A DNA stretch of 64,000 nt from a bacterium (lineage in GTDB: Bacteria > Babelota > Babeliae > Babelales > JABJEI01). Of this stretch, positions 25,513 to 60,404 are shown piece by piece. The notes beneath the pieces were generated by a model. The model made no database searches. It was not told where the DNA came from and saw only the letters and a program-made list of their open reading frames with translations. The stretch spans positions 9,129 to 73,128 of the forward strand of contig JABJEI010000019.1 of NCBI GenBank assembly GCA_018663245.1, read 5' to 3'. The position numbers and the translations under genes are program-made. Every line of letters begins with the position of its first letter. The stretch's first letter is position 1.

Positions 25513-25560
25513 AGATTTAATGGTATGGAGGTTTTAGAAAAGTTATTGATGGGTACCATA

Positions 25561-38614: not shown

Positions 38615-39670
38615 TTACCCCTGTTCCAGTTGGGCTTTTTCTTCTTTGATGGCAATATAAACATTTTTGCGTAAGTTTGTAGCAAATTCTGTGTTTTTCT
38701 TGATGTAAACAAGTGCTTGGTCCCGTCCTTGAGCAAAGTTTTTGTCGTCTTGGGAGTACCATGCACCAGCTTGCTTAACTAGCTTATAATGAAGAGCTGC
38801 ATCTAAAAGATCAAGCGATGGAGAAATTCCTTCACCAAAAATGAGGTCAAGCAGTACCCGTTTGAAGGGAGGTGCGACCTTGTTTTTGACGATTTTAATA
38901 GCAAGTCTGTTTCCTATGTGCACATCGCCCTTTTTAAGGCTGGCAATGCGTCTAACATCAATTCGCAATGATGCATAAAATTTAAGTGCGTTTCCGCCGC
39001 TTGTTGTTTCTTTATTAGCAAAAGCCATGGTGTTAATTTTGTGCCGAATCTGATTGATAAAGATCAATACGGAATTAGCTTTATATACCACAGGTGTCAA
39101 TTTGCGTAGCGCCTGAGACATCAATCGAGCTTGTAGGCCGACGTGTACGTCGCCCATGTCGCCTTCAATTTCAGCCTTAGGTACAAGTGCGGCAACCGAG
39201 TCTACGACGACTAAGTCGACTGCGCCTGAGCGAATCAACATTTCTGCAATGTTAAGTGCCTGCTCACCAAAGTCAGGTTGCGAGATAATTAGCTCGTCAA
39301 CGTTTACTCCAAGTGATCTGGCGTGTTCCGGGTTGAGTGCATGCTCAGCATCGATAAATGCGCATACTCCGCCCTTTGCTTGTGCTTGTGCAATTGCATG
39401 GAGTGTTAGTGTTGTTTTACCAGATGACTCTGGTCCAAATATTTCGATAATTCGACCACGAGGGAAACCATCGCAACCAATTGCTCTATCAACTAAAATT
39501 GAACCCGTTGGTATTGCTTCTACGTCGACCTTTGGAGCCTGACCAAGAAGCATAACCGAGCCTTTGCCAAATTCTTTGTCGATTTGAGCAAACGTCGTAT
39601 CTAGAATTTTTTTACGTGCTGAAATGTCGGAAACATTGTCCCGACCGGTATTCTTTTTAGTTTGTTTCAT
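38615..39670 (-). CDS. recA: Recombinase RecA
   Basis: [20 protein letters not shown] Walker [10 protein letters not shown], and L1/L2 regions FINQIRHKI...[13 protein letters not shown]. Confidence 0.97.
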
Positions 39671-41586
39671 TAATTACCACGCGCTGAAGTTCCTCTAAGA
39701 TCATTTTTAATTGTAGCATGGCCTAGCAAAGATTCAATGAATGTTCTTTGAATCGTGCGTAGTTCCTGCATAACAAGGTCGTTTTGTATAGTTAACAGCT
39801 CAGAGTCCAGTTTTTTTGGGTCGTACGAGCTTACTGTGCTTAACTGCGCAACAAATCCGTGCGATGCGCCTTGGTCAACGATGTATGCCTTAGGTGTTGT
39901 AAGTTCAAACAACCTAGTCGAGCTTAGGCCTTTTTTAAACAGGTCATCTAAACTGCCAGAATCTGATGGTAAAACATCTTTATAAGTCTGACTTGGCACA
40001 GATCCGAATGAATGCTGTTCAAGGCCGTTTGAGACTGCTTTCATCTCGCTTTGCATCTGCTTGGCAGCCTGATTTTTAATGTAATCCTGCTTTACCCTGT
40101 CTTCTACTTTTACAAATGCTTCAGGCTCTGCCTTAACGCGATTTGTTAGTTTGACCAGATATCCAGTTGAACCGATAAGGTCAAAGGCAAATCCGTCAAC
40201 TGTGGTTATGCGGTTTAATAGCGGTGCCGATTGTGCTCCACTTGATGCTGGTGTAGCAATAGACTCTTTTTTTCCGTTACGTTTTTTTATAAAGTTTGTA
40301 ACTGAATTTTCTGATCTATGCGCAATGCGTACTGAATTGCGAACTTCACGCTTAAACACTCTGCTGAACTGTTCGACTTTAAGCTCTTTTGAGATCTCAG
40401 ATTTAACATCACTTAGTGGTTTGTAGATAGCCGGCTTTGAACCAATTCGCTTGAGTATTGCAAAACCGCTTTTGGTATCAATAACTGTAGAAATTTGCCC
40501 ATCTTTTACAAGTTTATTTGCAGCTCTCTCAATAGGCGAGCTGAGCGTTATAGGGTCGATCATGCCAAGACTGCCACCATCAGAGGCGGTTTTCTTGTCT
40601 ATGGAATGTTTTTTTGCAAGCTCTTTGAACTTGCTGCCATCAAGCTTGAGGCTGGAATGTAACTCTTGTACAAGCTTGTTGGTTGATACCTTTATTATTT
40701 CAAGATCAAGTTTGCGAGCTTCTTTGAGATATCGATGGCGATTTCTCTTGTAGTATTGCTCAATTTTCTTGTCTGACACGCTTATGCCGTATGCTTCAGG
40801 GGTAAAGCTCCATACGCTACCATCACGTTGCTCTGTGGACCAGTATCGCTTTGCTTGGCTATTTTCGTAGTTATAAAAATTTCGCAATACAGTAGAGTCG
40901 ACAGGCAGCTTTTCTAGCTTGTCGATATATGTTTGCAATTCAAATGTCGCCACCTGATAGGTGCGCTTTACAAAGCGTTGTACGTAGGCATTAACGAGTT
41001 GAGAGTAAGGTGCATGAATAAAAATGCGTGATACATTTTGAGCAATTTGACGGACAAGTCGACGTTCAACCTGATCTTCAAACCATTCGATGTTTTTACC
41101 GGCTCGGTTTAGATGCGCCGACAATGCTTTAAAGTTTATATGTCGTCCGTTCCATGCAGATTGTGGGACAATGTCGCCAAGCTCATGTTGAACAAATGCT
41201 GGATTTTTGAGCTGGTCAATAACGTAATTGTTATCAACAACTATACCAGCCGTGTTGCCGGCAGACTCAAAAAGAGCTTCTTCAATTAGGTCACTTACTG
41301 CACGTTCTTTTGGATTACTACTCTTGCCAGAAGAGCCGTAAATGACGTCCATAGATATACCAGAAAAGCGCTTTTGGAACTCTTGTTGCATCTTTTCTTC
41401 GCTTTTTATTCGCGCTTCAATTTCGTGTGCAGATACACCTACATTGTTTACCATGATCGGGTCGCTTGACCCGGCTCCAAAGCGTCTAGCTAGTGGCACC
41501 GAAAGTAAAAACGATACCAGAATGGCGCCTACGGCGATCTGAATAATATATCTGCTTTTTATCGTTGAACGTATTGAGCTGATCAT
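39670..41586 (-). CDS. PpiD-like periplasmic chaperone / parvulin-type PPIase (membrane-anchored)
   Basis: N-terminal anchor [28 protein letters not shown] (PpiD-like). Parvulin segment [23 protein letters not shown]...[10 protein letters not shown]. Confidence 0.7.
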
Positions 41587-43570: not shown

Positions 43571-44550
43571 TTAGCGGTTACCGTCTCCGTCGAAATTTGC
43601 TTGTTTCTGAAGCCAGCTTAATGTTGGGCGACGGTAATTTTTTGTGATTTTCTCTATTGGTGAGTTTGTTTTTTTGTTTTTAAATGGGTTGACCTTCGGG
43701 CTATTCTTTGCTGAATGAAGTTCTTTGATTACTTTTTTTAATTTTTCTTTACAATTTTGATTTTCTAAAAGTTTCTGTTTGTTTGTTTGATTATCGGCAA
43801 TGAGCTGGCTGTTGGTGGTACTTAATGTTTGGTTCACTGCTTCAGCTTCATTGGCCAAGCTTTTTTGAGTTTCTAATTCATCGGTGAGTTGGCTGTTGGT
43901 GTTAGTTAATTCTTCGATCTTTGTAGCCGCTAGTTGGATTGCAGTTTTGATTTTAAGCTGGTTTTCTTCGGTTAAGTTTGTTTGAGTTTTTAATTGATCT
44001 GTGAGTTGAATGTTGGCATCAGTTAATTCTTTTATCTTTGTAGTCGCTAGTTGGATTGCTGTTTTGATTTTAAATTGGTTTTTTTGGTTAAGTTTGTTTG
44101 AGTTTTTAATTGATTTGTGAGTTGAATGTTGGCATCAGTTAATTCTTTGATCTTTGTAGCCGCTGGTTGGATTTCAGTTTTGATTTTAAGCTGGTTTTCT
44201 TTTGCTAGGTTCTCTTGCTTTTTCAAATCGTTGGCGAGCTGAGCGTTGGCGGCTCTTACTTTTTCCAGTTCGACAACAAGCGTGCTTGCTGTTTGACTTA
44301 CTTCTTTCGTTTGACTTCTGGTCAGATTTGCGTTGGCAGTTGTTAATTTTGCAACAGTCTTTTTATTTAGATTAAGAACGTATAGCAGATAAAAGGACAG
44401 GCTAACTCCCATTGCGGCTACAATTGGAACGACTTTTCTAACAACTTTTTTATATGTAGGCCTAATGAGTTTTAACTTGAGTCCGCTAGTTTGAGTTGCA
44501 ATTGGAAGTGTGGCTGTAATTGCGAGCGCGATCAGTAATAGCTTCTTCAT
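43571..44550 (-). pseudogene. Signal-peptide/TM coiled-coil surface protein interrupted by a -1 frameshift in a T7 (coding-strand A7) tract
   Basis: ORFs 44047-44550 and 43571-43858 are in adjacent frames. Adding one A at 44079-44085 gives a continuous ~326-aa ORF. The repeat unit holding the tract is 116 bp while its neighbour is 117 bp. Confidence 0.8.
43860..44210 (-). repeat. About three tandem 117-bp (39-aa) coding repeats
   Basis: Landmark ttgtag(c/t)cgct(a/g)gttggatt recurs at 43921, 44038 and 44154. Encoded unit: ..IKELTDANIQLT(D/N)QLKTQTNLT(E/K)(E/K)NQ(L/F)KIKTAIQLA(A/T)TK. Confidence 0.85.
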
Positions 44551-45577: not shown

Positions 45578-46264
45578 TCACGATAAACGGTTCTTTTTTA
45601 AAAAAATTCTATGAGCTAAAATCAGACAGACTGAAAGCGAAATTGGGTGGTGATAAGCCCATAGTGCCAATCGTTTTATTAACGAGGCTCGACCCGCTAA
45701 ATTGCGGGATCTAAGGGTGCTTTGTAGTAGATTAAAGCTGCAAGAAAGGCTGTTCATTAAGCGTGGAAGTGGTTTGTTGATGTTTGTTTTATAAATATTT
45801 ATTAGATGTTTGTTTGGAGTAAGTTTGGTAGACGTCCCATTTAGTTCGTCGATAAAAGTTATGTAAATTGCCTTGAGAACTATACAGAATTCTTTGAGAA
45901 TTGTAACCTCTTGGTCGAGGTCGCTGCCTACACCATTTTTTTTATAAATTCTCCAACAATCAATGACGGGCATGTAGCTAGTGAATCGCATCATGCGACA
46001 CACGCACCAACGAACAAGATCATTTTGGAACATGATATCGGCTCGGGGTTGTATGTTTTTGGATGGGATGCTTGTCCACGTGCAATAGTCTGCAATTCGT
46101 GAATCTAGGAACGCTTCGAGATTGTTGATCTGTCGACCAATTACACGGAAAGCCTTGATAATGTCTTGATGGGTCTCGGTGTATCGAATTGGCTGACCGT
46201 TAAGTTCTGTGGCACACACAAGAATTATTGTAGCGTACAGAATTGCCTTGTGGAACCGGTTCAT
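45578..46264 (-). CDS. Orphan secreted protein (228 aa)
   Basis: Signal peptide MNRFHKAILYATIILVCATELNG. No recognised motif. Confidence 0.6.
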   Translation of the reverse strand: MNRFHKAILYATIILVCATELNGQPIRYTETHQDIIKAFRVIGRQINNLEAFLDSRIADYCTWTSIPSKNIQPRADIMFQNDLVRWCVCRMMRFTSYMPVIDCWRIYKKNGVGSDLDQEVTILKEFCIVLKAIYITFIDELNGTSTKLTPNKHLINIYKTNINKPLPRLMNSLSCSFNLLQSTLRSRNLAGRASLIKRLALWAYHHPISLSVCLILAHRIFLKKNRLS

Positions 46265-46361
46265 GACAAGTGCCTAGTCTTTTAAATCTTTGGCGACCAT
46301 TCAATGAAATGTACCACATATAGGGTATAAAAAGATATTCTTTTACAAATGATGTAGGGGG

Positions 46362-47252
46362 CTAAATTTTGTATGAAAAGCCACCAACTTTTTGTAGGAG
46401 ATAGCCTGCAATAGGCTGCCATAATTTTTGAGTAATTGTTGGTTGTGCAAATCTCTCTAGTGAACCATATAGATCGATAGGTTCATTAGTTATGTATTCA
46501 TATTTATCGCTAGAGTTACTAGAAGCGTTTGATATTAATATGTCATAAAATGGCGTCCCCCGAAATAGCTGGGCAAGTATCATTGAAGCTTTTGGTATAG
46601 ATTTTTGATAAAGTGACGACCCATAAAATAGCTGGGCAAGTAGCGTTCGTGTTGCGATTACACCTAATAAAAGGCCAGCTTTACGAGTGAGCAAACTTTG
46701 CATGCTGATTGGCTTTTTTTGTAATCTACGTAGTAGTACTTCTGTGAGGCAAATAGCGATGAACGATGCGATAGGCTTCTTGAGCATGTAGCGTGTTCCT
46801 GTGCGTAGCTCTTCGCCGTTGTGCAGCTGGTTGTCGCTATATTTGTCTCCGATATCAGACTTTCCTTGTAGCAAAAAAGTTATTTCGGATGCTATTAGCA
46901 ATTGGATGGCCATTTTAGACAGGTTATTTTTTGGATTTTTCCACAATGGGTCTATTTTTGTTGGGTTCTGAAATAGCTTGCGTCTAAGTAATTTATGATT
47001 TATCACCTTGTGCCATACCAAATTAACAAGCAGCTTATACCATGCTATTTTAACACCTTTAAAAGCGGATCGCGCAATCAAGTCGAAAATAAATTGATTG
47101 AAAAAAATTTGGCTTCGCTTTGCCGTTCTTTGGACAATGTTAAGCGGTTTTGCAAGTTGGTTTAGCTGAGTTGGTAATTTTGGTGCAGTAAAAATGCTTG
47201 GCGTAAAGCCAATACTGGTAGCAAGTAATAGTGAAAGTATTCTTTGTTTCAT
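46362..47252 (-). CDS. Orphan secreted protein (296 aa)
   Basis: GGAGG lies 5 nt upstream of the ATG at 47252. Signal peptide MKQRILSLLLATSIGFTPSIFTA. Confidence 0.62.
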   Translation of the reverse strand: MKQRILSLLLATSIGFTPSIFTAPKLPTQLNQLAKPLNIVQRTAKRSQIFFNQFIFDLIARSAFKGVKIAWYKLLVNLVWHKVINHKLLRRKLFQNPTKIDPLWKNPKNNLSKMAIQLLIASEITFLLQGKSDIGDKYSDNQLHNGEELRTGTRYMLKKPIASFIAICLTEVLLRRLQKKPISMQSLLTRKAGLLLGVIATRTLLAQLFYGSSLYQKSIPKASMILAQLFRGTPFYDILISNASSNSSDKYEYITNEPIDLYGSLERFAQPTITQKLWQPIAGYLLQKVGGFSYKI

Positions 47253-47398
47253 GGCAACCTCCAAGTCCCCAAGTCTCCGATATATTTCTTGAGCGAACTA
47301 ATGTACGCCTATATATTATTATGGACTATTTGGCAATTTTGTCAAGTTGAGCATAAAGCAAGGGCCTGGAAATAACTCCAAGCCCTTGAGATAGTTTT

Positions 47399-48055
47399 TT
47401 AGGAAATGTTGTACAAGTAAGCGAGTGCTTTACGAGTAACGATTTGACTTACAGCAGTCAAAGCGCGACCTGTAACATTTATATCGCCTCCAAGTAGGCA
47501 GCCTTTTACAGTAACTCCGCTAGCGAATTTACTGATAGGTCTCCAGACTGAGTTAGTCTTACCAAGTTCGCTTTCAGGCGAAATTCCTGCAGCCCAGAAA
47601 GATGACTTGCGGCAGTGGAAGTCTATTGCATTAGTTATAAATATAGGTGCTATGGCGTCTTTTGCTTCTTTTATGAGCAGGCTTCCAAATGTTTTATTAT
47701 TTAGGGATAGCATGTTCTCTACAACAACAGCGGGAAGAACCCTTATTGCTATAGCTGCAAGTGTGCTCTTTAATAGCACCGGGCCAAGAACGTCGGTTAC
47801 TGCGATAGGCGAAAAGCGTAAACGCATCCACAAACGCTGCTTAAACGGCGGTAATTCTTTTTTCTCTTCGACTACTTCTTGTTGTTGGGCGCCAGTGTCA
47901 CCATTTGGGGTTGTAGTCTCTAGTTGGGCAAAATGCTTTAAAACTGTGCGAGCGCTTGAATTTTGAGGTGTAACACCTTGTATTGCGGGAGGTGTAGCCA
48001 CAATTGGGCCAAAAGCAGTTAATGCAAAAAATAAGGAAAGTAAAAGCTTTTTCAC
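47399..48055 (-). CDS. Orphan secreted protein (218 aa)
   Basis: GTG start with AGGGGA Shine-Dalgarno sequence. Signal peptide MKKLLLSLFFALTAFGPIVA. Confidence 0.6.
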   Translation of the reverse strand: MKKLLLSLFFALTAFGPIVATPPAIQGVTPQNSSARTVLKHFAQLETTTPNGDTGAQQQEVVEEKKELPPFKQRLWMRLRFSPIAVTDVLGPVLLKSTLAAIAIRVLPAVVVENMLSLNNKTFGSLLIKEAKDAIAPIFITNAIDFHCRKSSFWAAGISPESELGKTNSVWRPISKFASGVTVKGCLLGGDINVTGRALTAVSQIVTRKALAYLYNIS

Positions 48056-48226
48056 GAAATCCCCTAATTAGTTAAAGTGTCCTTAAGATTATATATATAA
48101 TTATTATATAACTAAATGCATATTTGGTCAAAATAACTTTAATAAGTGGCTTTAGTTTAGCCCCTTATAATCCCATATTTTTACAAAAAGCTTTATCTAA
48201 TTTTAATGCTTTTTTCCAAACTCTTC

Positions 48227-48830
48227 TTGCATCTATACTTTAATACTTTTGCGACTCGTCTTTGCTGTAGCTACGCCGTCACAGGTTTTTAAACTACCTT
48301 TTAATAAATCCCTGTCATCCTCGCGAATGCGGGGATCCAGTCTTTAAATAGATCATTTGATCACCTTTTGCATCTATACTTTAATACTTTTGCGAGGGGT
48401 TGCTCACCCAACCCCTCGCGGACAAGGGTGCCGGGGGAACCCCTGGGCCCCGGCGTGCGTAACTTGAAACCTCGAGCTAAAGCTCTGCAGTTTCTTCAAC
48501 AGAGCGCACTCAACTGAATTATTTATTTTTAGATGGCTTGGCCAAGACAAGGATGGCATGCATCCGTCTTCGCCTAAAAAACGCCTCCCTTGCCTGGCCT
48601 GCGAAGCCTTTGGCGAAGACGGGTCATCCCCGGCTTTGAACGGGGATCCAGTTTTTCAGTAGCTCATTTGAATGTCTGAGAAAGGTTTCTAGATATTTTT
48701 AGACTTTTGCATATTTACTATGAAGTTGCACTTAACGGATAATAGCTTTAGTCCTGGATCCTTGCATGCCATCCTTGTCGCGGCGTAGATGTAGCGAAGA
48801 CGGATTAAGCGATGTCGGGCGAAGTTCGCA
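48227..48830. repeat. Largest cluster of the dispersed modular repeat family
   Basis: Direct repeat cttgcatctatactttaatacttttgcga at 48227 and 48367. Hairpin 1 at 48392-48419. Hairpin 2 at 48431-48446. Units gtcatcctcgcgaatgcggggatccag (48314-48340) and gtcatccccggctttgaacggggatccag (48623-48651). Internal inverted pair 48541-48562 / 48768-48790. Confidence 0.85.
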
Positions 48831-48843
48831 GAACGAAGACTGA

Positions 48844-49548
48844 TTAGATGATTAGCGAAGGATTGCCATCAGTGTCGATATACCAGTTGATTGTAGGCTT
48901 ATCTAGCAGCGGCTTGTAGACAAACAAGTCGTTAAAATCATTCAGATCTTGCGACTGGTCTTCTTGGTTGATGATTTTATACTCTCTGAGCGCAAGTCTT
49001 TTTGCTCGCTCATTATAGTATGCATATAGGAGGCGTGGGAGCTTTTGGAACAAGGCTAAACTTGCTGTTTCAATAACCGCACCTAACACTATATTTTGTT
49101 TTATCCCAGACGTAAACGCTACTTTTAGACTCGAACGTTTACAGATAGCGATTGTAACATTTTTGACCGTAGTCCAAACGAGTTGGCCGCCTACTTGCAT
49201 CGGTATTAACAGTAGGCTTTGTTCTCGATCAACAACAGCAAGGCCAATCTTGCCAAGTGGCCTGGCAAAGGGCTTTATTTTAGCTAGTGGCGCGACTAGC
49301 TTAGAAAGTTGGCTTGGTTTTTTTGCAGCGAGGGCTTTTGTGGCGCCTACTATTTTAGTTGTAGGTGTCGTGCTTTTTATTTTTACACCCAAGTATTTTT
49401 TTGCCAAGTTCGCAGCGGCTAACTCGGCCCCTGTCATAATAAGGCGCCCAGTAAGTCCTGGTCCGTTATCGGCATAAACTGGAAGGTGCGCGCCGAGTAG
49501 GCACGCACCAAGAAAGATTGAGGCAATTGGTTTTAATAATCGTTGCAT
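48844..49548 (-). CDS. Orphan secreted protein (~234 aa)
   Basis: Signal peptide MQRLLKPIASIFLGACLLGAHLPVYA. Ala/Lys-rich. Confidence 0.6.
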   Translation of the reverse strand: MQRLLKPIASIFLGACLLGAHLPVYADNGPGLTGRLIMTGAELAAANLAKKYLGVKIKSTTPTTKIVGATKALAAKKPSQLSKLVAPLAKIKPFARPLGKIGLAVVDREQSLLLIPMQVGGQLVWTTVKNVTIAICKRSSLKVAFTSGIKQNIVLGAVIETASLALFQKLPRLLYAYYNERAKRLALREYKIINQEDQSQDLNDFNDLFVYKPLLDKPTINWYIDTDGNPSLII

Positions 49549-49565
49549 TGGCACCAGGTTCGCGG

Positions 49566-50297
49566 TTAAGTAGTTCCTAATAAGTTACTGTTTTTACCGT
49601 CCTTTTTTGGCTCAATGCTTTTAAGTTTAGCATTTTCTTCAACTTTTGGCTCGCGCAGTTTTTCGTAGGCTTTGCGCATTGGAACCAGCATAAACCTAAC
49701 ACCAATCGTGCAGCCGGTTTTAATGGCTGTGCTTTTTAGCTTATCTATGCCGAAATCAGATTCTGTGGCAGCTGACACGATAAACCGTATAATTGCAAAT
49801 TTAGCAAGCTTGCCGAGTTGTTTGTGCGTTATGTATTCAAATGACTTAAGCTCTTTTTTAATATCGGAATCTCTGTTCCATGGCGAGATCTTCCTAATGG
49901 ATAATTCAACTTCATCGCCAGGTATGCCAGCGATAACATTTATAAGCGTGTCGTTAATTATACCTGAATAATCCCGCTTTTCTCTAAATCCAAAGTATTT
50001 CAGTGCAGCGCTAGCAGTGATTCTCTCTGTAGCTGATATAGCAAATGCAAAGAGTGTTCTGGCGGGTACACGCTTGAAAATACTAGGACGTTCTTTTGTT
50101 CCAAAAAAGTAATCCTTGGCACCGCCGTCAATCAAGTTTAGGGGGTTTAGGCGCGATGCCCAGCTCGCCCGCTTTACTTGCGCTAGCGAGTCATTTTTGG
50201 CAACTGCAGCAACGTGTGCGTGTAGTCCAAGTAAGCAAATGGCGGCACTGGTTAGAATAATTCTTTGTTGTAGGTTCTTCATAAACTTTTTGTTCAT
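49566..50297 (-). CDS. Orphan secreted protein (243 aa)
   Basis: Signal peptide ..RIILTSAAICLLGLHAHVAA. No recognised motif. Confidence 0.6.
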   Translation of the reverse strand: MNKKFMKNLQQRIILTSAAICLLGLHAHVAAVAKNDSLAQVKRASWASRLNPLNLIDGGAKDYFFGTKERPSIFKRVPARTLFAFAISATERITASAALKYFGFREKRDYSGIINDTLINVIAGIPGDEVELSIRKISPWNRDSDIKKELKSFEYITHKQLGKLAKFAIIRFIVSAATESDFGIDKLKSTAIKTGCTIGVRFMLVPMRKAYEKLREPKVEENAKLKSIEPKKDGKNSNLLGTT

Positions 50298-50337
50298 CCT
50301 TTATGATGACTTAGGGTTTGGTACTATGTTAGCTTTT

Positions 50338-50940
50338 TTAATTTTCTTTAAGTTTTTTCAGCGCCAGCTCGTACAGTACGTTAAATCGATTTTTTATGCT
50401 CTCTAGAACGAGCCTGTGAGCCTTCTTTAGGACTGGATGTGTAACTTTTAAACTATCGTCTTCTAATTTATCGAGAATCTGGTCATTGAATTTAAGCGCT
50501 GCGACACTTTGTCCACAAATCAGCTCTGCATCTTTGTCGCTACGCATTTGTAGAGGCAGAAATGCATTTTTGGCATACACAACTAAAAAGTGCCGCATTT
50601 TATCCTCGTCTACGAGTTCGGACATGGCAAAAGATAGGGCGAGCTTTTCTCGAGAGATGGGTTTGCTTGCTTCAACATTGCTACTAATCTTGTTTAGGGC
50701 CCAGGCAACTGCTGCCACTTCGATTGGCGCCCATACCTGAGAATCTAATTTTAATTCATTTAAACGCTTTTTTGACGCCTTAAGACGCATTTTTAGATAA
50801 GTGCTTGAGAGAGCAATAGACTCTTCATAGAGTTTTTCTTGATTGTTAATAGCATTCTGGGATTTAGCTGAACATACCATAGGCAGGGCAAGCAAGATCG
50901 AAAAGGCCAATTCGTGAAAAGTTATCTGTTGTAGGTGCAC
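50338..50940 (-). CDS. Orphan secreted protein (~200 aa)
   Basis: AAGGAG lies 6 nt upstream of the GTG at 50940. Signal peptide ..FHELAFSILLALPMVCSA. Confidence 0.58.
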   Translation of the reverse strand: MHLQQITFHELAFSILLALPMVCSAKSQNAINNQEKLYEESIALSSTYLKMRLKASKKRLNELKLDSQVWAPIEVAAVAWALNKISSNVEASKPISREKLALSFAMSELVDEDKMRHFLVVYAKNAFLPLQMRSDKDAELICGQSVAALKFNDQILDKLEDDSLKVTHPVLKKAHRLVLESIKNRFNVLYELALKKLKEN

Positions 50941-51144
50941 TATCAACTCCTTTGTTAGCTGGACGTGGCATCTTGCTACAGTATTAAGCCTGTGGAGGCT
51001 AATGTAGCATCGATTGTTGAGCTATAAGCATGATATGGAAGATGTTTTTGTCAAGTAATGTAGCATGAAACATGCGCAGAAAGGCAATAATGTTACTAGA
51101 GGCTCAGGGGTAATAACTCAGAGCCTCTTACTTGGATAAGCTTC

Positions 51145-51612
51145 TTAAACTTCTTCTGTCATTATCGAGCTGCGCTCGCCAAGTAAAATCTCGCGCTCAT
51201 TAAGCAGCATATTGTGCTTTAGCAGTTCTATTGAGAGTCTCAGCTTTATTCCACCAAGTTTATCATCATGTATGAGTGACTCTTGTTTGACGGTGCTTTC
51301 GGTGTCTAATTTCGCTTTTTCAACGCATAACGTATATAGCTTGTCGTTGATATTACGCTTCTCCTCCAATACTTTATCAGTTATTTCAAGTATTTCTGGA
51401 ACTTTATTAATAATCTGAGGCAAGCGCGCTTTAATGCTTTTTAACATTGCTTCGCGTAGCTCCACTGACGCAAGCCTCTCCAAGCCAGCTGTTATAGCAA
51501 TTAAGCGCTCAGTTTTGGTCTCGTCGAGATAGGCATTAGTCTTGCCGATCTCGGCAAGGGTGCCGGCAGTTGCCAGTAGTAGGCCGTACAGGGCTATTTT
51601 AGTGTATTTCAT
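51145..51612 (-). CDS. Orphan secreted protein (155 aa), helical
   Basis: Signal peptide MKYTKIALYGLLLATAGTLA. Confidence 0.6.
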   Translation of the reverse strand: MKYTKIALYGLLLATAGTLAEIGKTNAYLDETKTERLIAITAGLERLASVELREAMLKSIKARLPQIINKVPEILEITDKVLEEKRNINDKLYTLCVEKAKLDTESTVKQESLIHDDKLGGIKLRLSIELLKHNMLLNEREILLGERSSIMTEEV

Positions 51613-52680
51613 TTATTGTTCCATTCACATGAGGGCTTTAATTTAACTACCATCATTTTGGCCCATAAACTAAAGAGCGTCAACAGCCATACCTGCAGAA
51701 AAGCGCCCAGCACAGGCAACAAATGCAACCCAGAGCACTACGATCAACTACGACAGAGCCATAGAGTCGCACGCCAACAAAGGAAGGCCAATCAAGCCAA
51801 TTATGGATCAATAAGGGCTTATCGTATCGCAGATATAGCTACAGACATGCCAGGGGCTCTCCCCTTTCCCTTTTTGAGCTTTTTAACTTTACTAAGAATC
51901 TTATGCAAATCTAAACTCACATACGAGCGAGGCAAATTACTTAACGTGCGATCCACGCAAGACTCGCACAACTCTAGGCGCGAATTACGTACGATGTTAA
52001 TGCACACGTACAGATGAGAATAAGGCTAAGTGTCGGGTATAGGAGTATAAGGGTAAGTATCATGACAAAGAGTTACGCTTGAACTTCGTTAGTCTTACTT
52101 CGTAGTAAAGCTCTATAAAGTATCCATCTTAGTTTTACTTCGACGCGATTCCTTATATAACCAAACCTTAAAGAGACAACCTTATAAACAAAACCCTAAA
52201 AGTTGAAAAACCTAATAAACCAAACACCCTACCCTGCAAAGAAAGCTTAGAAGACTTGCCCCCAAGAACCACCATAGCCCGAACCAGAGAGTTAACGTAG
52301 ACGAGCCCAGTCGACCAACCCCCAAAGAGCTGCCCCCAACGGCCCCGGGAGGATGTGGGGAGTCGGAGTTCTCTGCGTGAGCTCAAAAGTTTGCCTAGGA
52401 GAGAGGCAATGTATCTCTAAAAATAGAAAATCGCGTAGCGTATCCCTAAAAACTTTCGAAGAAATGCTCAAAAGCCCAAGAATAAAGCTAGATTTAATCT
52501 TTTAGTAAGTATTCCGCCAAATTGGTCGTTAGGTTGCTTGGCTTGTTTTTGTTGTAGCGTAGCTGTTAATAATTATCAGACTCTATAATTCATCTGCTTC
52601 GCCTGACGCTCAGTTTTAAAATTGCAAGGGCATGTAGGCGAGAAGTAGCTAAGGTTGTTTGATCTAAAAATCTTTATTAT

Positions 52681-52930
52681 TAGCTAAACTGTTTGAAGCA
52701 ACCTAAAAGCGTTAGCTTCCCAGGCTTGGTTGCCAACTTAAAAGGAATAGATTCTTTTCAAAGCTGGGCGATTATTAGCAGTTCTCTAAAAATAAATAAT
52801 TCAGTTGAGCGTGTCCTGTTGAAGAAATTGCAGAGCGCAGCTCGAGGTTTCAAGTTGCTCGCGTAGGGTATCCAAGGTCCTCCTTGGTGTCCTTGTCCGC
52901 TAGGGGTTGGACAAGCAACCCCTAGCTAAA
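52681..52930. repeat. Modular repeat cluster; 52784-52930 is the inverted partner of 48387-48533
   Basis: Reverse complement aligns module by module with 48387-48533 (by eye ~80% identity). 52681-52730 matches 32287-32335 in reverse complement. Confidence 0.85.
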
Positions 52931-53009
52931 GCTTTTTAAAAAAACGTTGCAAAAAATAGAGCATGCAGTTGAGAACTTAAGAAAAGAGACAATTATAATT
53001 GGGGAGAGT

Positions 53010-53033
53010 ATGAGGGGCAATTAAGCCCCTCAT
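53010..53033 (-). terminator. Hairpin terminator after dnaK
   Basis: atgaggggc-aattaa-gcccctcat forms a 9-bp stem 4 nt past the dnaK stop. Confidence 0.6.
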
Positions 53034-53037
53034 GGTA

Positions 53038-54948
53038 TTACTCTTCGCTAACCTCTGCATCAATAGGACCATCTTCAGATGATGTAGATTCATCCTTAGA
53101 AGCCGCATCAGGTGCAGATTCGTCGCCCGGCTTTTGTTCAGCCGCTTTTTCTTTATACAGTATCTCTGCAATCTTGTGCGATGCTTCAAGCAGTTCATTC
53201 ATTGATGCTTCAAGTTTGCCCGCATCTTCAGAATGTTCTTTCAGGTCTGCCTTGGCTTTTTCAATAGCCGACTCAACCTTTGTTACTTCTTCAGCTGGTA
53301 GTTTTTCTTTGCTCTCTTTGACAGTTTTTTCAACTTCAAGGATAACGCCGTCAAACTTGTTACGCTTTTCTATAAGTTCACGAGCCTTTTTATCTTCAAC
53401 TTCGTGCTCTTGCGCATCTTTAACCATCTTTGCAATTTCATCTTCTGACAATCCGCCAGAATCAGATATTGTTATGTTTTGCTCTTTGCCGGTTGCCTGG
53501 TCTTTAGCAGACACACTTACAATACCGTTAGCATCGATATCAAAAGTCACTTCAATTTTAGGAACACCACGTGGTGCCGCAGGAATTCCATCGAGCTTAA
53601 ACTCACCCAAAATCTTGTTGTCACGAGCAAACTCACGTTCACCCTGGCCTACACGAATATCAACAATAGTCTGATTGTTATCAGCAGTACTGAAGACTTC
53701 AGATTTTTTGGTAGGGATAGTTGTATTACGCTCAATCAGCTTGGTCATTACACCGCCCTGAGTTTCAATACCTAACGAAAGCGGAGTTACGTCAAGCAGA
53801 AGCACATCAGAAACGTCACCAGCTAATACACCACCCTGCACAGCTGCACCAACCGAGACGACCTCGTCTGGATTAACTGATTTGTTAGGTTCTTTGCCAA
53901 AAATCTCTTTTACCAGCTCAGAAATCTTTGGAATGCGGGTTGAACCACCAACCAAGAGTACTTCATCAATCTGACCGGAAGACATTCCCGCATCGCTTAA
54001 AGCTTTTTTACAAGGAATAGCTAATCGCTCAAAAATATCTGCACACATCGACTCAAGTTTTGCACGAGAAAGCTTCACAACTAGGTGCTTTGGACCGCTT
54101 GCATCTGCAGTAATATAAGGAAGATTAATGTCGGTCTCTTGCGTGCTTGAGAGCTCAACTTTTGCTTTTTCTGAAGCTTCACGCAAGCGTTGTAGCGCCA
54201 TGCGATCTTTTGACAGATCAACACCCTGCTCTTGCTTGAATGTAGCTATAAGATGATTAATCAAAAGACGATCAATGTCATCACCACCAAGATGCGTATC
54301 ACCACTGGTAGACTTAACTTCGATAACGCCATCATGAATGTCCAAAATGGAAACATCAAATGTACCGCCACCAAAGTCAAAAACAGCAATTATACCGTTC
54401 TTTTTCTTATCCATGCCGTACGCAAGCGCTGCTGCGGTTGGTTCATTAATAATTCGCTTAACATCCAAACCAGCAATTTTACCGGCATCTTTGGTTGCTT
54501 GACGCTGTGCATCGTTAAAGTATGCAGGAACAGTCACAACGGCCTCTTTAACCGTCTGACCAAGGTAACCCTCTGCAACTTGTTTCAGTTGAGAAAGCAC
54601 CGCTGCAGAAATTTCTTGAGGGGAGTATTCTTTACCCTGAGCAACAATGCCAATATCGCCGTTAGAGCTACGAACTACTTCGTATGGCAACCCAGACAGC
54701 TCGCCCTTGAGTTCGTCGTAGCGAGAGCCGATAAAGCGCTTTGCTGAGTAAATTGTGTTCTCTGGATTGGTAACAGCTTGGCGTTTTGCCTGTACGCCGA
54801 CCAAGCGCTTGCCATCTTTAGTAAAAGCAACAACGGACGGAGTCGTATTTTGACCTTCCTCGTTTACTATAACTTTGGCCGTGCCACCTTCCATAACCGA
54901 AACAACAGAGTTGGTTGTTCCTAAATCAATTCCTATAATTTTGCTCAT
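53038..54948 (-). CDS. dnaK: Molecular chaperone DnaK (Hsp70)
   Basis: [37 protein letters not shown], and a C-terminal lid with an acidic tail. GGGGA Shine-Dalgarno sequence before the ATG at 54948; the tracked ORF has a 33-codon non-homologous extension. Confidence 0.97.
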
Positions 54949-56387: not shown

Positions 56388-56400
56388 AATTAGCACAAAT

Positions 56401-56458
56401 AAGGCTGGTTAACAGCGAGGGGCGCCTTTTCGGACGCCCCTCGCTGTTAACCAGCCTT
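56401..56458. terminator. 58-nt near-perfect palindrome; bidirectional terminator between the 408-aa gene and fibre gene A
   Basis: 24-nt arms aaggctggttaacagcgaggggcg / cgcccctcgctgttaaccagcctt plus 2 more bp around a 5-nt loop. The right arm includes the fibre-gene stop codon. Confidence 0.7.
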
Positions 56459-59400
56459 ATTTGTCTTTTTTATCCTTCTTAAGTTCTTTGCGAAGGTCGT
56501 CTATCTGCGCTTGCATATCTTCAAATCTCGCTTGAACACCCTCATAACGCTCCTTCATATCTTCATTATCATTGCTCAATTCTTGAACAGCCTTAATAAG
56601 TGGCGTAACCAATTCTGCGTAACAAATACTATAATAACCCAATTCAGAATTTGGACGATTCACTGCAAAATCTGGGTGACCATGCCGCATTGCCACCTCA
56701 TCAAGCTCTTGCCCTATCAAACCGTACCTTTGTTTATCACCTTCACCTGCAATAAGGTGATAGCTAACGGTATTTAAATCATTAATAAACTCTAGGCCTA
56801 AATTAGATGGCTCGATATCGCGCTTCAAACGTTTATCAGAAGAAGCGGCCCATGCTGTTGCCCCATTTGTCAGCTTTACACCACCACTTGTATTGCTAAC
56901 CTCAAGCTCATCATCTCCAGAGTCGTACCACATTCCAACGTCAACTCCGTTAGTAAAGGAATAAGCTGGTGTTGATATGGTTCCATCCGTAGCACGCACA
57001 TAACCACTAGCACCATTTAAGGTCAAAACTCCAACAGAACTTAATGCCATTTTTTCTGTTGAATGCGTTGCTCCAACGGCAGTCTTAAATGACAATTTAG
57101 TCGCATGATCGGAACCGGTGTGCCTACTCTCTGCAACAGCCTCAATCGCAGCAACATCATGCTCTCCCAAGCTTTCAGCTGGCGTGTAAAAATCAATAAT
57201 ACCTATCTTATCATCAACCCTAATGTCCGACTCTCCACTGTAAAATCCCAAATATGCTGGCGAATCGTCTCCTGAAGCAGTGTGCTTTATTATTAAGCCC
57301 TTATCAGGATCATGAATAAGACGAACTTCACTATCGGCACCAAACCGAATCACAGAGTTATCTGAACCCAGAACAATGTCATCTACAAATGTCACAACTC
57401 CATCTGAAGCTATAGTCATTGCTGTGGCAGCATTAGCAGAACCAATTGTTCCACCATCCTTGATCTTTATATCGTCAACAAAGGCCACAATACCATCTGA
57501 AGCTATAGTTATTGAACTCGTAGCGCTGGCAGAACCAATTGTGCCGGCATCAGGAATCACTATCGAGCCGCTACCACCATTTAGTGTCAAAACACCAACC
57601 GAGCTTAAAGCCATTTTTTCTGTTGAATGCGTTGCTCCAGCTGCAGTTTTAAACGACAATTTAGTTGCATGATCTGAACCTGTATGCCTACTTTCTGCAA
57701 CAGCCTCAATCGCAGCAACATCATGCTCTCCCAAGGTTTCAGCTGGCGTATAAAAATCAATAATACCAATCTTGTCATCAACTCTAATGTCCGACTCTCC
57801 ACTATAAAAACCCAAATATGCAGGCGAGTCGTCTCCTGAAGCTGTATGCTTTATTATCAGGCCCTTATCAGGATCATGAACAAGATGAACTTCACTATCG
57901 GCACCAAAACGAATAACAGAATTATCTGAACCCATAACAATGTCATCAACAAATGTCACAACTCCATCTGAGGCTATAGTCATTGCTGTATCGGCACTGG
58001 CTGAACCAATCGTTCCACCATCTTTAATTTTGATATCATCGATAAAGGTTGCGATGCCATCCGAAGCTATAGTTATTGCAGCAGAAGTAGTGGCCGAACC
58101 AATCGTTCCGCCATCAGGAATTACTATCGCCCCACTGCTACCATTCAATGTAAGCACGCCGGTTGAGCTAAGCGACATCTTCTCTGCCGCAGCCTCAGAT
58201 GCCGCTGTTTTAAACGACAACTTAGTAGGATTATTTGTAGCGCCAAAAGTAGCCTCTGCAACAGCTTCAATCCCGGCCGCAACCAACACAGCATCCGCCC
58301 CTGTTTCACCTATTGCCTGAAAATCAACTACGCCAATTTTATCATTAACAGCAACAATTGCTTCATCACTTTGGAGGGTAAGAGAAACAGGCTTTGCCGC
58401 ACCTGTAGCAGCATGCTTTAATATAAGACCCTTATCAGCGTTATGAGCAAGCTCAACTTCTTGGTCATTGCCAAAATAGATGACGCCACCATCGGCTAAG
58501 TACAAGTCACTCCACTCAAGACTAGCGCTACCCAAAGCCGCTGAATCAGCCGAAGCCGGTGCTAAAGCACCAGTAAATGTAATACCATCAGAGAAAGTCA
58601 CAATTCCGTCAGAAGCTATAGTTATTGCAGCAGGAGTAGTCATCGAGCCAATCGTTCCACCATCCTTAATCTTGATATCATCGACAAAAGTTACAATGCC
58701 ATCCAAAGCGATTGCTATTGCTGTAGCAGCGCTAGTTGAACCGATCGTTCCACTATCTTTAATTTTGATATCATCGACAAAGGTTACGATGCCATCAGAA
58801 GCTATAGTTATTGCAGCAGAAGTAGTGGCCGAACCAATCGTTCCGCCATCAGGAATCACTATCGCCCCACTGCCACCATTGAGCGTAAGCACACCGATTG
58901 AACTAAGTTTCATCTTCTCAGCGGCAGCTTCTGATGCTGCTGTTTTGAATGACAGCTTGGTAGGATTATTTGTAGCGTCAAAGGTAGCTTCTGCAACAGC
59001 TTCAATCCCGGCAGAAACTAGAACAGCATCAGCTCCTGTTTCACCTATTGCCTGGAAGTCAATGACACCGATTTTATCGGAAGCATCAATAATTGCCTCA
59101 TTACTTTGGAGGGTAAGATATACAGGCGTGTTCGAACCCGAAGCAGCGTGCTTTAATATAAGACCCCTATCAGCAACATGGGTTAAGGTAATTTCTTGGT
59201 CACTACCAAAATATACAATCCCACCATCTGCTAAAAACAGATCACTCCACTCAAGGCTAGCGCTACCCAAAGCCGCACCATCTGCCGAAGCCGGCGCTAA
59301 AGCACCAGTAAATGTAACACCACCAGAACCAGACTTAAGTGCAACTTGTGTTGTACCGTTTGTATTACCTATAGTAATCGTTCTATTAGCCGCACCTGTA

Positions 59401-60134
59401 CCAATATTAATGGCCTGAGCATCCGCATCGTTACCTACATTAATTGCACCACTAGTAGAGTTCAAAGACATAGCACCGGTACAATCAAGATCTATTGTCG
59501 TTGCAGAAGACAGCGTTGTTGTACCTGTTCCACCAAGCACAAATGATGCAGTTCCGTCAGTAAGAGTCAAAGCGTCACCCGACGTAAGCGTGATAGCTGT
59601 TGAAGTAGCTGTAAATGCAGTGTTACCTGGGGAACCAAGCGCCAATGTTCCAGTGCCGTGAGGGTATATCGTTATGTTTTCATTGTCAGCAATGGTGGCA
59701 ATACTAATATCACTTGTAGTATTAATATGCCATCTACTACCCAATAGCGAACGTGAGTATGCATTTAAATTATCGCTAACAATACGCAAAACTGCGTCAT
59801 CTTCGATGCAGTCATGATGATTCTGAAGCAACTCCTGACAGCCATCAATAGCATCCAAAAGAACTTCCATTTCTATCATATGCTTGCCACGTTTAACGCA
59901 TTCAAAAAGCTCGCTAACAGCTTCTGGAATCTCGAGACCGCGACAAGCACGTTCTAGAACCATAACAGCTGGAGCTATATCAGAACCATCAGGCAGAACC
60001 AAGCAAATCTTGCATGAATAGTAATCACTAAATGAATTGTATGAATCCGAACCTTGTACAGCCTTTAATAGTCCTACCGGAAGCAAAAACGATACCAACA
60101 ACAATGCTCTTATTGTACGCGCCGCTGTCTTCAT
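56457..60134 (-). CDS. Secreted repeat-rich fibre protein A (1,225 aa) with C-terminal Peptidase S74-like intramolecular chaperone domain
   Basis: AAGGAG Shine-Dalgarno sequence. Signal peptide MKTAARTIRALLLVSFLLPVGLLKAVQG. Gly/Thr/Ala/Ile-rich beta-type repeats. C-terminal 128 aa start with SSDKRLKRDI..GL.FINDL..VSY......YGLIGQELDEV (Ser-x5-Lys dyad spacing as in endosialidase/tail-fibre chaperone domains) and end in a coiled-coil tail. Confidence 0.85.
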   Translation of the reverse strand: MKTAARTIRALLLVSFLLPVGLLKAVQGSDSYNSFSDYYSCKICLVLPDGSDIAPAVMVLERACRGLEIPEAVSELFECVKRGKHMIEMEVLLDAIDGCQELLQNHHDCIEDDAVLRIVSDNLNAYSRSLLGSRWHINTTSDISIATIADNENITIYPHGTGTLALGSPGNTAFTATSTAITLTSGDALTLTDGTASFVLGGTGTTTLSSATTIDLDCTGAMSLNSTSGAINVGNDADAQAINIGTGAANRTITIGNTNGTTQVALKSGSGGVTFTGALAPASADGAALGSASLEWSDLFLADGGIVYFGSDQEITLTHVADRGLILKHAASGSNTPVYLTLQSNEAIIDASDKIGVIDFQAIGETGADAVLVSAGIEAVAEATFDATNNPTKLSFKTAASEAAAEKMKLSSIGVLTLNGGSGAIVIPDGGTIGSATTSAAITIASDGIVTFVDDIKIKDSGTIGSTSAATAIAIALDGIVTFVDDIKIKDGGTIGSMTTPAAITIASDGIVTFSDGITFTGALAPASADSAALGSASLEWSDLYLADGGVIYFGNDQEVELAHNADKGLILKHAATGAAKPVSLTLQSDEAIVAVNDKIGVVDFQAIGETGADAVLVAAGIEAVAEATFGATNNPTKLSFKTAASEAAAEKMSLSSTGVLTLNGSSGAIVIPDGGTIGSATTSAAITIASDGIATFIDDIKIKDGGTIGSASADTAMTIASDGVVTFVDDIVMGSDNSVIRFGADSEVHLVHDPDKGLIIKHTASGDDSPAYLGFYSGESDIRVDDKIGIIDFYTPAETLGEHDVAAIEAVAESRHTGSDHATKLSFKTAAGATHSTEKMALSSVGVLTLNGGSGSIVIPDAGTIGSASATSSITIASDGIVAFVDDIKIKDGGTIGSANAATAMTIASDGVVTFVDDIVLGSDNSVIRFGADSEVRLIHDPDKGLIIKHTASGDDSPAYLGFYSGESDIRVDDKIGIIDFYTPAESLGEHDVAAIEAVAESRHTGSDHATKLSFKTAVGATHSTEKMALSSVGVLTLNGASGYVRATDGTISTPAYSFTNGVDVGMWYDSGDDELEVSNTSGGVKLTNGATAWAASSDKRLKRDIEPSNLGLEFINDLNTVSYHLIAGEGDKQRYGLIGQELDEVAMRHGHPDFAVNRPNSELGYYSICYAELVTPLIKAVQELSNDNEDMKERYEGVQARFEDMQAQIDDLRKELKKDKKDK
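57011..58138 (-). repeat. Two tandem 564-bp (188-aa) in-frame repeats inside fibre gene A
   Basis: Landmark gccattttttctgttgaatgcgttgctcc occurs at 57046 and 57610. The copies are roughly 90% identical by eye. Confidence 0.85.
58081..59330 (-). repeat. Two tandem 735-bp (245-aa) in-frame repeats inside fibre gene A, containing 93-bp (31-aa) sub-repeats
   Basis: Landmark gcagaagtagtggccgaaccaatcgttccgccatcagg occurs at 58081 and 58816. The 31-aa unit D(G/S)GTIGS...ITIASDGIVTFVDDIKIK is repeated three times around 58590-58850. Confidence 0.85.
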
Positions 60135-60351: not shown

Positions 60352-60366
60352 AATTAGCACACAAAA

Positions 60367-60388
60367 GGGGCGCCTTTTCGGACGCCCC
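60367..60388. terminator. Terminator hairpin after fibre gene B (truncated copy of the 56401-56458 palindrome)
   Basis: ggggcgcc-ttttc-ggacgcccc. The outer 18 nt of the left arm are absent here. Confidence 0.65.
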
Positions 60389-60404
60389 TCGCTGTTGACC
60401 AGCC

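Follow-up and report, generated by a model that had tools for sequence, protein, structure and literature searches.

Mosaic repeat arrays combining a REP palindrome with a covarying multi-helix element in a Candidatus Dependentiae chromosome

Background

Repetitive extragenic palindromes (REPs) of the CGTC class have a CGTC or TGTC tag, an 8–9-bp stem that starts with A-T pairs, a 4–5-nt loop and a CCA tail; families with other loop lengths are acknowledged, and GGTC is not among the listed tags (PMC3733652). The class takes in the Rickettsia palindromic elements (RPEs) RPE-6/RPE-4, and the CGTC-1 elements of Neisseria are the dRS3 repeats (PMC3733652). It has no dedicated transposase, and its Neisseria and Wolbachia copies are clustered (PMC3733652; Di Nocera, De Gregorio and Rocco 2013). 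In the Neisseria intergenic mosaic elements (NIMEs), many families of 50–150-bp repeats are interleaved in intergenic arrays and each repeat unit is flanked by 20-bp dRS3 inverted repeats (ATTCCC-N8-GGGAAT); these arrays were described as Neisseria-specific (PMC1797815). Here we describe mosaic intergenic arrays in a 64,000-nt stretch of DNA (GenBank assembly GCA_018663245.1, contig JABJEI010000019.1, positions 9,129–73,128 of the forward strand), referred to below as the window, from an uncultivated bacterium of the lineage Candidatus Dependentiae (TM6). The arrays contain a palindrome (module Z), several GCGAAG-rich modules (G, Y and V) and a folded element of about 145 nt (element X).

Palindromic elements that are inserted in frame within genes occur in Rickettsia. 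Among the pneumococcal repeats, BOX elements are modular and SPRITE elements are terminator-like, and terminal inverted repeats with target duplications are features of both BOX and RUP (PMC3049150). The Coxiella elements QMITE1 and QMITE2 have 21–29-bp terminal inverted repeats and 7–9-bp direct repeats; some overlap small RNA (sRNA) genes, and small QMITE2 copies are REP-like (PMC5896051).

Mosaic arrays share a set of modules

An initial annotation of the window had proposed that five intergenic regions – 1637–1750, 16569–16597, 32205–32619, 48227–48830 and 52681–52930, here arrays A to E – are built from the same short modules. BLAST self-comparison, a repeat finder and a pooled comparison all bore this out. 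By BLAST, 48366–48533 aligns with the reverse complement of 52785–52954 over 171 nt with 77% identity (E=1e-30). Three further pairs also align in reverse complement: 32295–32351 with 52663–52719 (91% identity), 1716–1765 with 48573–48622 (90%) and 16552–16597 with 48623–48668 (91%). Across the five arrays and seven related loci (described below), the modules X, Y, G and V and the leaders are found in varying orders and orientations. That 48227–48830 is one of several mosaic repeat arrays in the host chromosome is firmly supported. The same array is present in an independent ENA assembly (L060) at 99.99% identity, so the arrays are not an artefact of assembly. A Logan contig of the same species (L073) ends about 355 nt past the gene for a 930-aa protein (1897–4689), at about window position 1540, in array A or immediately before it, which is where a short-read assembly would stop if the repeats disrupt it.

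Modules also lie within other modules. G, Y and V are GCGAAG-rich modules of about 30 nt each, and the sequence of G is CCTGYCCGGCGAAGCTTTACGCGAAGCCTGG. A copy of G splits the tail of an X at 32454–32485 and does likewise in two of the related loci (L068 and L069), the loop of the Z at 32558 holds a related GCGAAG-type module, and the head of the X in L069 is broken up by V and Y modules. Two X fragments end within the loop of the first hairpin. Y followed by Z and its extension is a recurrent unit, also found in L061, L065 and L071. In array D, the exact 28-nt duplicates at 48227 and 48368 flank a 113-nt segment that bears Z, not X. The degenerate end of the same array also has a copy of a TGCATGYC.TCCTTGTC..GCGTAGA module that is seen too at 1621–1660. 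The hexamer GCGAAG is enriched about 5.7-fold in the arrays, and all five GGATCC sites of the window lie within them.

One copy of G is inside a gene. Its 33 nt are in frame in the gene for an EamA-family transporter and lengthen the stretch between the two EamA domains by 11 residues, ASRKASPGRPK. Six homologues, one of them 79% identical and from a sister species (P0122), lack these residues. Some homologues of this transporter are annotated as S-adenosylmethionine/S-adenosylhomocysteine (SAM/SAH) transporters.

Element X has a multi-helix fold under selection

Two hairpins with matched changes in their arms had been reported. Alignment of the three window copies showed that they are parts of one unit of about 145 nt, X, which runs from an A/T-rich leader through hairpin 1 (helix P1), hairpin 2 (P2) and a conserved core to a T-rich end (TTTTTAGA). 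Hairpin 1 is found at 48392–48419, 32210–32237 and, on the minus strand, 52899–52926, with changes on both arms at stem positions 3 and 11; the positions given for hairpin 2 (48431–48446, 32249–32266 and, on the minus strand, 52872–52887) were also correct.

Ten distinct full copies of X are available, three in the window and seven in the JGI loci L061, L065, L068 and L071. The JGI contigs were found by a metagenome scan with a 21-mer from X and match the window in the repeats only. They are most likely other loci of the host lineage, because no DnaK exists between 75% identity and the window's own 90% cluster. Two pairs of the related contigs, L061/L067 and L066/L071, are duplicates of a locus. 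The window holds no further full copy by a search with the covariance model of X, built from the ten copies and run with filters off. The leader region at 1599–1712, which precedes an X fragment, is 89% identical to 761–875 of L068.

The heads of X fall into three subtypes, defined by the P1 loop, its partner downstream and the P2 stem: CACC/GGTG/CCGGGG in subtype a, TGTC/GACA/CCAAGG in subtype b and CGCC/GGCG/CCAAAGG in subtype c. Copies are 86–94% identical within a subtype and about 70–77% identical between subtypes. There are two types of tail, T1 and T2, and since head b occurs with either, heads and tails recombine.

In a hand alignment of the ten copies, X has five helices: P1 of 11 bp, P2 of 6–7 bp, P3 of 6 bp, P4 of 5–6 bp and P5 of 4 bp. 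In addition, the P1 loop pairs over 4 bp with a tetranucleotide 7 nt downstream of P1, forming a candidate pseudoknot. In this alignment, canonical pairing holds in 354 of 373 cells (94.9%). Two-sided changes occur in 14 pairs, compared with 0–4 when the 3' partners are slid by 1–3 columns. Among the proposed pairs in which both columns vary, 12 of 14 (86%) covary, while this is true of 81 of the 1596 pairs of variable columns overall (5%). A count on a MAFFT alignment, from which P2 was left out as MAFFT misaligns it, gave 93.9% of cells paired, with 28–45% in slid controls, and no pair that varies on one side only. The covariation score was 0.330, compared with 0.138+/-0.017 in shuffles, none of which (0 of 500) reached the observed value, and was at most 0.10 in the slid controls. 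RNAalifold recovered P1, P2 and the three-helix domain, with two-sided compensatory changes in 10 of 31 pairs, and single-sequence minimum free energy folds recover P1–P5 in subtypes a (z=-3.6) and c (z=-4.9).

The individual helices show how these changes are distributed. Position 3 of P1 has three pair states (A-U, G-C and U-A), the loop-to-downstream pairing has three haplotypes, and P3 has four forms (GCAGAA/UUCAGC, GCAAAA/UUUAGC, GCGAGU/ACACGC and GUGCGU/GCGCAC). In subtype c, P2 has an extra base pair, inserted on both arms. The conserved stretches GGACAAG and UUCAACAG are unpaired. Selection on the multi-helix fold of X, a new element, is firmly supported, because three subtypes that differ at about 25–30% of positions keep every helix through two-sided changes. 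The initial proposal of selection on structure, made from two hairpins, therefore held and now extends to three more helices and the loop-to-downstream pairing.

Module Z is a CGTC-class REP

The third repeated unit that had been noted, with loops of variable length, also recurs as described: the pattern GTCATCCYCG-N(5-35)-GGGATCCAG matches the window exactly three times, where 100 shuffles give an expectation of 0.00, and a fourth copy (32558–32620) has an insert of 39 nt in its loop. Another seven copies are present in the related loci, which together with the window make up about 100 kb of sequence from the lineage. The arms of Z are ATCCTCGC/GCGGGGAT or ATCCCCGG/ACGGGGAT, which form 8 bp with one T-G or G-A position and an A-T start. 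The tag is TGTC at 48313, 32557 and 16598 (minus strand) and GGTC at 48622, and the tail is CCAG in every copy. The loop has 4 nt at 48314 and in L065, L068 and L071, 6–8 nt at 48623 and 16569, and 39 nt at 32558. A 3' extension of about 20 nt, T(C/T)TWWMARTAGMTCATT, is conserved; for the Z at 48314 it is 48341–48365.

An unpaired (C/T)GTC tag, an 8-bp stem with an A-T and T-A start, a CCA tail and the lack of a dedicated transposase nearby are all shared with the CGTC REPs, and on these features the assignment of Z to that already published class, which is widespread in other organisms, is firmly supported; the copy at 48314 also has a 4-nt loop. Z differs in some respects: most local loops have 6–8 nt and one has a 39-nt insert, the tag is TGTC or GGTC and never CGTC, and there is the added 3' extension. 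The phyla listed for the class do not include that of the host, Dependentiae (PMC3733652).

A scan of IMG/VR with the Z pattern found 47 loci (L005–L051) with a G+C content of 47–70%. Nearly all of these matches are 27-mers of the form GTCATCCCCGCG-NNN-GCGGGGATCCAG, and some are the exact variant of the window, GTCATCCTCGCGAATGCGGGGATCCAG; one 27-nt palindrome is nearly unchanged across 47 stretches of such different composition. The T-G stem position that recurs in Z is also present in the IMG/VR copies, which points to the GTCAT strand as the folded one. Z was not found in three syntenic Dependentiae relatives. The Rfam family RF02748 (FtrB, a Francisella sRNA), aligned to 48293–48389, has a dRS3/CGTC-REP-like hairpin, AUUCCCGCGUAGGCGGGAAUC, in its consensus and may have been built around a REP.

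Comparison with described repeat systems

The arrays resemble NIMEs in that a palindrome of the same class is interleaved with 30–150-nt repeat families, in varied order and orientation, in intergenic sequence; a further likeness is the position of array E at a rearrangement breakpoint relative to related genomes. Unlike NIMEs, they are short, with one to three palindromes, and palindromes do not enclose their modules in any regular way. Array D alone has X and Y between two Z copies, and arrays A and E have no intact Z. Z itself, ATCCYCG..CGGGGAT, is of the same class as dRS3 but does not have its sequence. We know of no RS element with a covariation-supported multi-helix fold like that of X.

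The likeness to BOX, SPRITE and the bacterial interspersed mosaic elements (BIMEs) of E. coli lies in modularity, a high degree of base pairing, probable co-transcription with neighbouring genes and enrichment at 3' ends. SPRITE also resembles the terminators of its host, as P1 of X resembles the gene-end hairpins described below, but X, with its five helices and candidate pseudoknot, is more elaborate than this simple terminator-like hairpin. BOX and RUP differ from X, which has neither their terminal inverted repeats nor their target duplications. The in-frame G, which adds an 11-residue loop to a conserved transporter of an intracellular-type bacterium, is reminiscent of the Rickettsia RPEs; unlike them, G is much shorter, not palindromic and seen in only a single in-gene copy. 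The Coxiella QMITEs are likewise dispersed structured repeats of an intracellular bacterium; compared by features rather than by sequence, they differ from X, which lacks terminal inverted repeats and flanking direct repeats. X matches no described family.

Searches and rejected identities

At gathering thresholds, Rfam 15 has no match in the whole window. The best permissive scores for X are all below threshold (given in brackets): 21 bits (47) for preQ1-II, 17 bits (40) for nrdJ and 17 bits (66) for FtrB, the last of which rests solely on the REP hairpin. An exact scan of 185,579 reference genomes (GTDB species representatives) with the 21-mer GCTCTGCARTTTCTTCAACAG did not find X. The 21-mer has six genome matches, or eight over genomes and viral contigs together, and as all of them lie in unrelated, coding-looking sequence, neither the host species nor X is among these genomes. 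X was also absent from IMG/VR viral contigs (exact 21-mer and hairpin-1 pattern) and, by BLAST, from plasmid and phage collections. The covariance model, built from the ten copies, had no match in the 65 kb searched, 52 kb of which is from the three syntenic Dependentiae relatives. Every other assembly of the host species is 99.9–100% identical to the window.

The initial annotation had suggested either a REP- or MITE-like (miniature inverted-repeat transposable element) nature or a structured RNA family. REP proved right for Z and a folded element for X, and X falls outside the definition of a MITE. There are no terminal inverted repeats – the best inverted match between 5' flank and 3' end is 4–6 nt, copy-specific and in A/T-rich sequence – and no consistent direct repeat around the copies that would represent a target-site duplication. 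A REPIN/RAYT system is not supported for X or Z, as no ORF of at least 100 aa in the window or the related loci has a Y1 transposase domain and the tag is GTC, not GTAG. An origin of X from IS200/IS605 (PATE or omega-RNA) was rejected because the long hairpin is at the 5' end only (P1) and no TnpA or TnpB is found in the available sequence of the lineage. The arrays are too long for integron attC sites and no integron integrase is present; the conserved ATAA-N6-TTAT core of dif/pdif Xer sites is absent. GGA motifs are found in subtype b only, which does not fit a CsrA-sponge RNA. A known small ribozyme or riboswitch has no Rfam support and no consistent downstream gene. An IS110 bridge RNA was rejected because there is no recombinase of that kind and no complementarity, judged by eye only, between X loops and Z.

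Most copies of X follow a gene in its direction

In nine of the ten copies or fragments for which the gene on the 5' side is known, X has the same direction as that gene (one-sided binomial, about 0.01), and it is found 40–190 nt past the stop codon. In the window, the genes concerned are ppa, dnaK and ileS; in the related loci, they are those for TyrRS, a HerA-like protein, MraY and HtrA and two unnamed ORFs. The X at 32208–32351 begins 93 nt past the stop codon of ppa and that at 52785–52928 begins 110 nt past the stop codon of dnaK, each in the orientation of the gene. In L061, paired X copies are convergent and face each other.

P1 of X has the form of a hairpin that is also found at gene ends. 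There are nine AGGGG..CCCCT hairpins in the window, none of them inside the main gene set used. Five are at a gene 3' end or at most 31 nt from it, three are the P1 of X, and the ninth (51852–51865) is near no gene end and overlaps a doubtful ORF (51616–52017). A stereotyped hairpin, which is not a canonical intrinsic terminator, seems to be the mark of gene 3' ends in the host lineage. Weak matches of the X covariance model fall on three of the gene-end hairpins. Two convergent genes have between them a perfect inverted repeat of 30 nt with a 10-nt spacer (56395–56464), and after the next gene, at 60366–60412, one arm and the central hairpin recur in nearly the same form. A YTTAAN box is located 5–8 nt before P1 in all ten copies of X, though the leaders upstream of it differ.

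Because of this orientation bias and the likeness of P1 to the gene-end hairpins, we infer that X acts as RNA at the 3' ends of genes. The explanation that we favour, in which we have about as much confidence as doubt, is that the arrays are NIME/BIME-like mosaic repeats assembled from three kinds of part – Z palindromes, the GCGAAG-rich G, Y and V, and the folded X – and that X is a folded RNA at gene ends. X would be transcribed as the tail of the mRNA of the upstream gene or from a weak promoter of its own. As P1 is the same AGGGG..CCCCT hairpin as that at host gene ends, X may be an elaborated 3'-end module, one that would terminate, protect or process the transcript. The A/U-rich leader and stable 5' hairpin might offer a site to RNase Y, which the host encodes at 35073–36632. 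The modules themselves would have spread at the level of DNA, by insertion or by recombination between repeats, through an enzyme encoded outside the approximately 100 kb available from the lineage.

Several observations weigh against this explanation. X is no general 3'-end signal, as it accompanies just 3 of the roughly 45 genes of the window, and it is not a canonical intrinsic terminator, as no U tract follows any of its helices. In array D, the flanking ORFan genes run in the direction opposite to X and to the two Z copies. The -10-like TTTAAT box of X, which might serve a promoter, does not have the conserved A at position 2. The strand that folds is undecided by wobble counts (5 G-T against 11 A-C cells, or 5 against 5 without the doubtful last pair of P4), and the reverse strand also folds well (z=-3.3). 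The pseudoknot is sterically tight, with a 7-nt linker to span the 11-bp P1. Most of the two-sided changes separate the three subtypes, and the independent events number perhaps 15, not 40.

A more specific proposal, which we make only tentatively, is that X represents a previously undescribed class of structured non-coding RNA (about 145 nt, with five helices, a pseudoknot and three co-evolving subtypes) that has a defined biochemical role and is not only selfish, with dozens of copies in one Dependentiae lineage. One candidate role is that of a 3'-end module that blocks exoribonucleases or directs processing by RNase Y, releasing stable RNAs derived from 3' untranslated regions. Alternatively, X could serve as the RNA partner of a recombinase that has yet to be seen and that mobilizes the mosaic modules.

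Alternative explanations

The main rival to a folded RNA at gene ends is that X is a selfish, non-autonomous mobile element without any host role. A trans-acting enzyme would read its fold, in either single-stranded DNA or an RNA intermediate, and the fold would be kept since only correctly folded copies propagate, as with REPINs/RAYT and the ends of IS200/IS605. Much of what is seen in the arrays would follow: the density of three full copies and three fragments in 64 kb, subtypes with several dispersed copies each, copies truncated in the P1 loop, the recombination of heads and tails, nested insertions with a related module in frame inside a gene, the break of an assembly at an array (L073), and the absence of X and Z from the syntenic relatives. 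However, X has no terminal inverted repeats, target duplications or matching hairpin at its other end, and no transposase, RAYT or reverse transcriptase was found in the window or the related loci. Five helices and a loop pairing exceed what known DNA transposases read, and a bias toward the orientation of the upstream gene is not predicted, unless insertion targets the gene-end hairpins directionally. On balance we regard a purely selfish X as possible but doubtful. Decay of a gene or insertion sequence into the present modules is effectively excluded, as is covariation as a by-product of few related copies. Only three subtypes lie behind most of the two-sided changes, and 5% of all variable column pairs appear 'compensatory', but the proposed pairs covary far above this background (86%), none varies on one side only, slid controls fall to 28–45% paired, and the extra P2 pair of subtype c was inserted on both arms. 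Nor is there coding potential: the longest ORFs in the arrays have 51–79 codons and are not conserved, and X has no coding potential of its own. With stem changes preferentially compensatory as well, neither condition that the initial annotation had set for its own refutation was borne out.

It is also improbable, though not to the same degree, that the copies of X are sibling sRNA genes, each with its own promoter in the Z extension and leader, that act in trans on mRNAs or proteins. The YTTAAN box before P1 in all ten copies is what such genes would have, as is a TTGATC hexamer 17 nt upstream of TTTAAT in the type-1 leaders. The transcript would open with a stable hairpin and close with a U-rich tail, X has conserved unpaired stretches, and the X of array D, being antisense to its neighbours, cannot depend on their read-through. 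Against this, the -10-like box is without its key A at position 2, most leaders have no -35, and a scan for sigma-70-type consensus sites, made over 47900–53200 only, listed none at the X leaders of arrays D and E. No terminator hairpin stands beside the U-rich tail. Truncated and chimeric copies are unexpected of genes under selection, and X is absent from the related Dependentiae sampled.

Host lineage and other features of the window

The window has a G+C content of about 42% and encodes a set of housekeeping genes and many ORFans. Among the matches listed for its DnaK, the named relatives are mostly Candidatus Dependentiae or Babeliaceae. Outside its own cluster the best identity is no higher than 75%, and a search of 5.8 billion proteins found no DnaK between that value and the window's own 90% cluster. 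The product of the peptidyl-prolyl isomerase gene at 39670–41586 is identical on JABIJJ010000004.1 (GCA_018655585.1) and on many ENA/Logan contigs. As had been noted, there is no transposase in the window: Pfam scans of about 40 ORFs gave a XerC/D-like tyrosine recombinase (22975–23922) as the sole recombinase. When ORFs of 100 aa or more from the window and from the related loci were scanned with Pfam, no Y1 transposase, RAYT or reverse transcriptase was found either. A search for tRNA and tmRNA genes found none.

The gene order YmdB, RNase Y, ZapA, L20, L35, IF3, RecA, PpiD, SPOR, MiaA, CarD, DnaK is common to the three Dependentiae relatives (L075–L077), in which carD and dnaK are divergent and separated by 0.9–6.9 kb. 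In the window, dnaK is inverted relative to these genomes, and about 7.5 kb of ORFans (45578–53037) lies between the two genes. This stretch, which holds array D and terminates at array E, looks like a lineage-specific island or rearrangement. A homologue search with one of its ORFans (48844–49554) recovered only the protein itself. The 640 nt at 52018–52660 have no convincing ORF, no Rfam match and an ordinary folding energy (z=-0.14), and may be a decayed gene.

Several long or repetitive genes are also found. Two paralogous giant genes on the minus strand, 56457–60134 and 60405–63896 (1225 and 1163 aa), have long internal repeats, and the products of both end in a Peptidase_S74 domain, which in endosialidase and tail-fibre proteins is an intramolecular chaperone. 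An ORF of 1855 aa on the plus strand (25474–31041), with many internal repeats, a strong A-over-T skew and no Pfam match, looks like a coiled-coil effector-type protein. Three tandem 116-nt units (88% matches) at 43857–44202 overlap the start region of an ORFan (44047–44550).

Table 1. Repeat modules, parts of element X and gene-end hairpins in the window
Feature	Position	Strand	Remarks
X, full copy, head subtype a, tail T1	48390–48533	+	covariance model 149 bits
P1 of this copy	48392–48402 with 48409–48419	+	manual alignment
Candidate pseudoknot of this copy	48405–48408 with 48427–48430	+	manual alignment
P2 of this copy	48431–48436 with 48441–48446	+	manual alignment
P3 of this copy	48455–48460 with 48504–48509	+	manual alignment
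P4 of this copy	48466–48471 with 48489–48494	+	manual alignment
P5 of this copy	48474–48477 with 48482–48485	+	manual alignment
U-rich tail of this copy	48510–48533	+	manual alignment
X, full copy, head subtype c, tail T2	32208–32351	+	covariance model 140.6 bits; P1 32210–32237; pseudoknot 32223–32226 with 32245–32248; P2 32249–32266
X, full copy, head subtype b, tail T1	52785–52928	-	covariance model 138 bits
X tail, T2-type, extra, headless	52663–52761	-	30.5 bits; downstream of the full copy in the same array; 91% identical to 32295–32351
X tail, T1-type, headless	32417–32512	+	module G inside (32454–32485); compared with the uninterrupted tail of L061_148
X, 5' fragment	1693–1714	+	leader and 5' arm of P1, broken in the P1 loop, fused to module Y
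X leader duplicate	48227–48254	+	exact 28-nt copy of 48368–48395 (leader and first 4 nt of P1), 100% identity
Z, CGTC-1-type	48314–48340	+	tGTC-ATCCTCGC-GAAT-GCGGGGAT-CCAG; identical 27-mer in IMG/VR contigs
Z, long-loop variant	48623–48651	+	GTCATCCCCGG-CTTTGA-ACGGGGATCCAG; 3' extension to 48669
Z, long-loop variant	16569–16597	-	extension 16552–16568
Z with loop insert	32558–32620	+	39-nt GCGAAG-type module in loop (32568–32606)
Module Y, GCGAAG-rich	48573–48622	+	directly 5' of Z
Module Y, second copy	1716–1765	-	90% identical to 48573–48622
Module G in gene	33700–33734	-	97% identical to 32455–32485; inside EamA-family transporter gene 33324–34247
Degenerate end of array D	48751–48830		half Z (CTGGATCC, 48753–48760) and scattered GCGAAG motifs (sequence reading, motif counts)
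Gene-end AGGGG-loop-CCCCT hairpins	1864–1883, 32114–32130, 53013–53030, 56418–56441, 60366–60389		without U tract

Conclusions

The covariation support for X is stronger than that for most bacterial repeat families, and X, which has no Rfam counterpart, is a concrete candidate for a new structured RNA. The in-frame insertion of the 33-nt G into a transporter gene indicates that the modules still reshape genes, much like the RPEs of Rickettsia. The orientation of X 3' of genes and its likeness to the gene-end hairpins suggest how repeats get recruited to the formation of mRNA 3' ends. That mosaic arrays of the dRS3/CGTC type also exist in a host-dependent phylum so remote from Neisseria suggests that a common mechanism makes and shuffles them.

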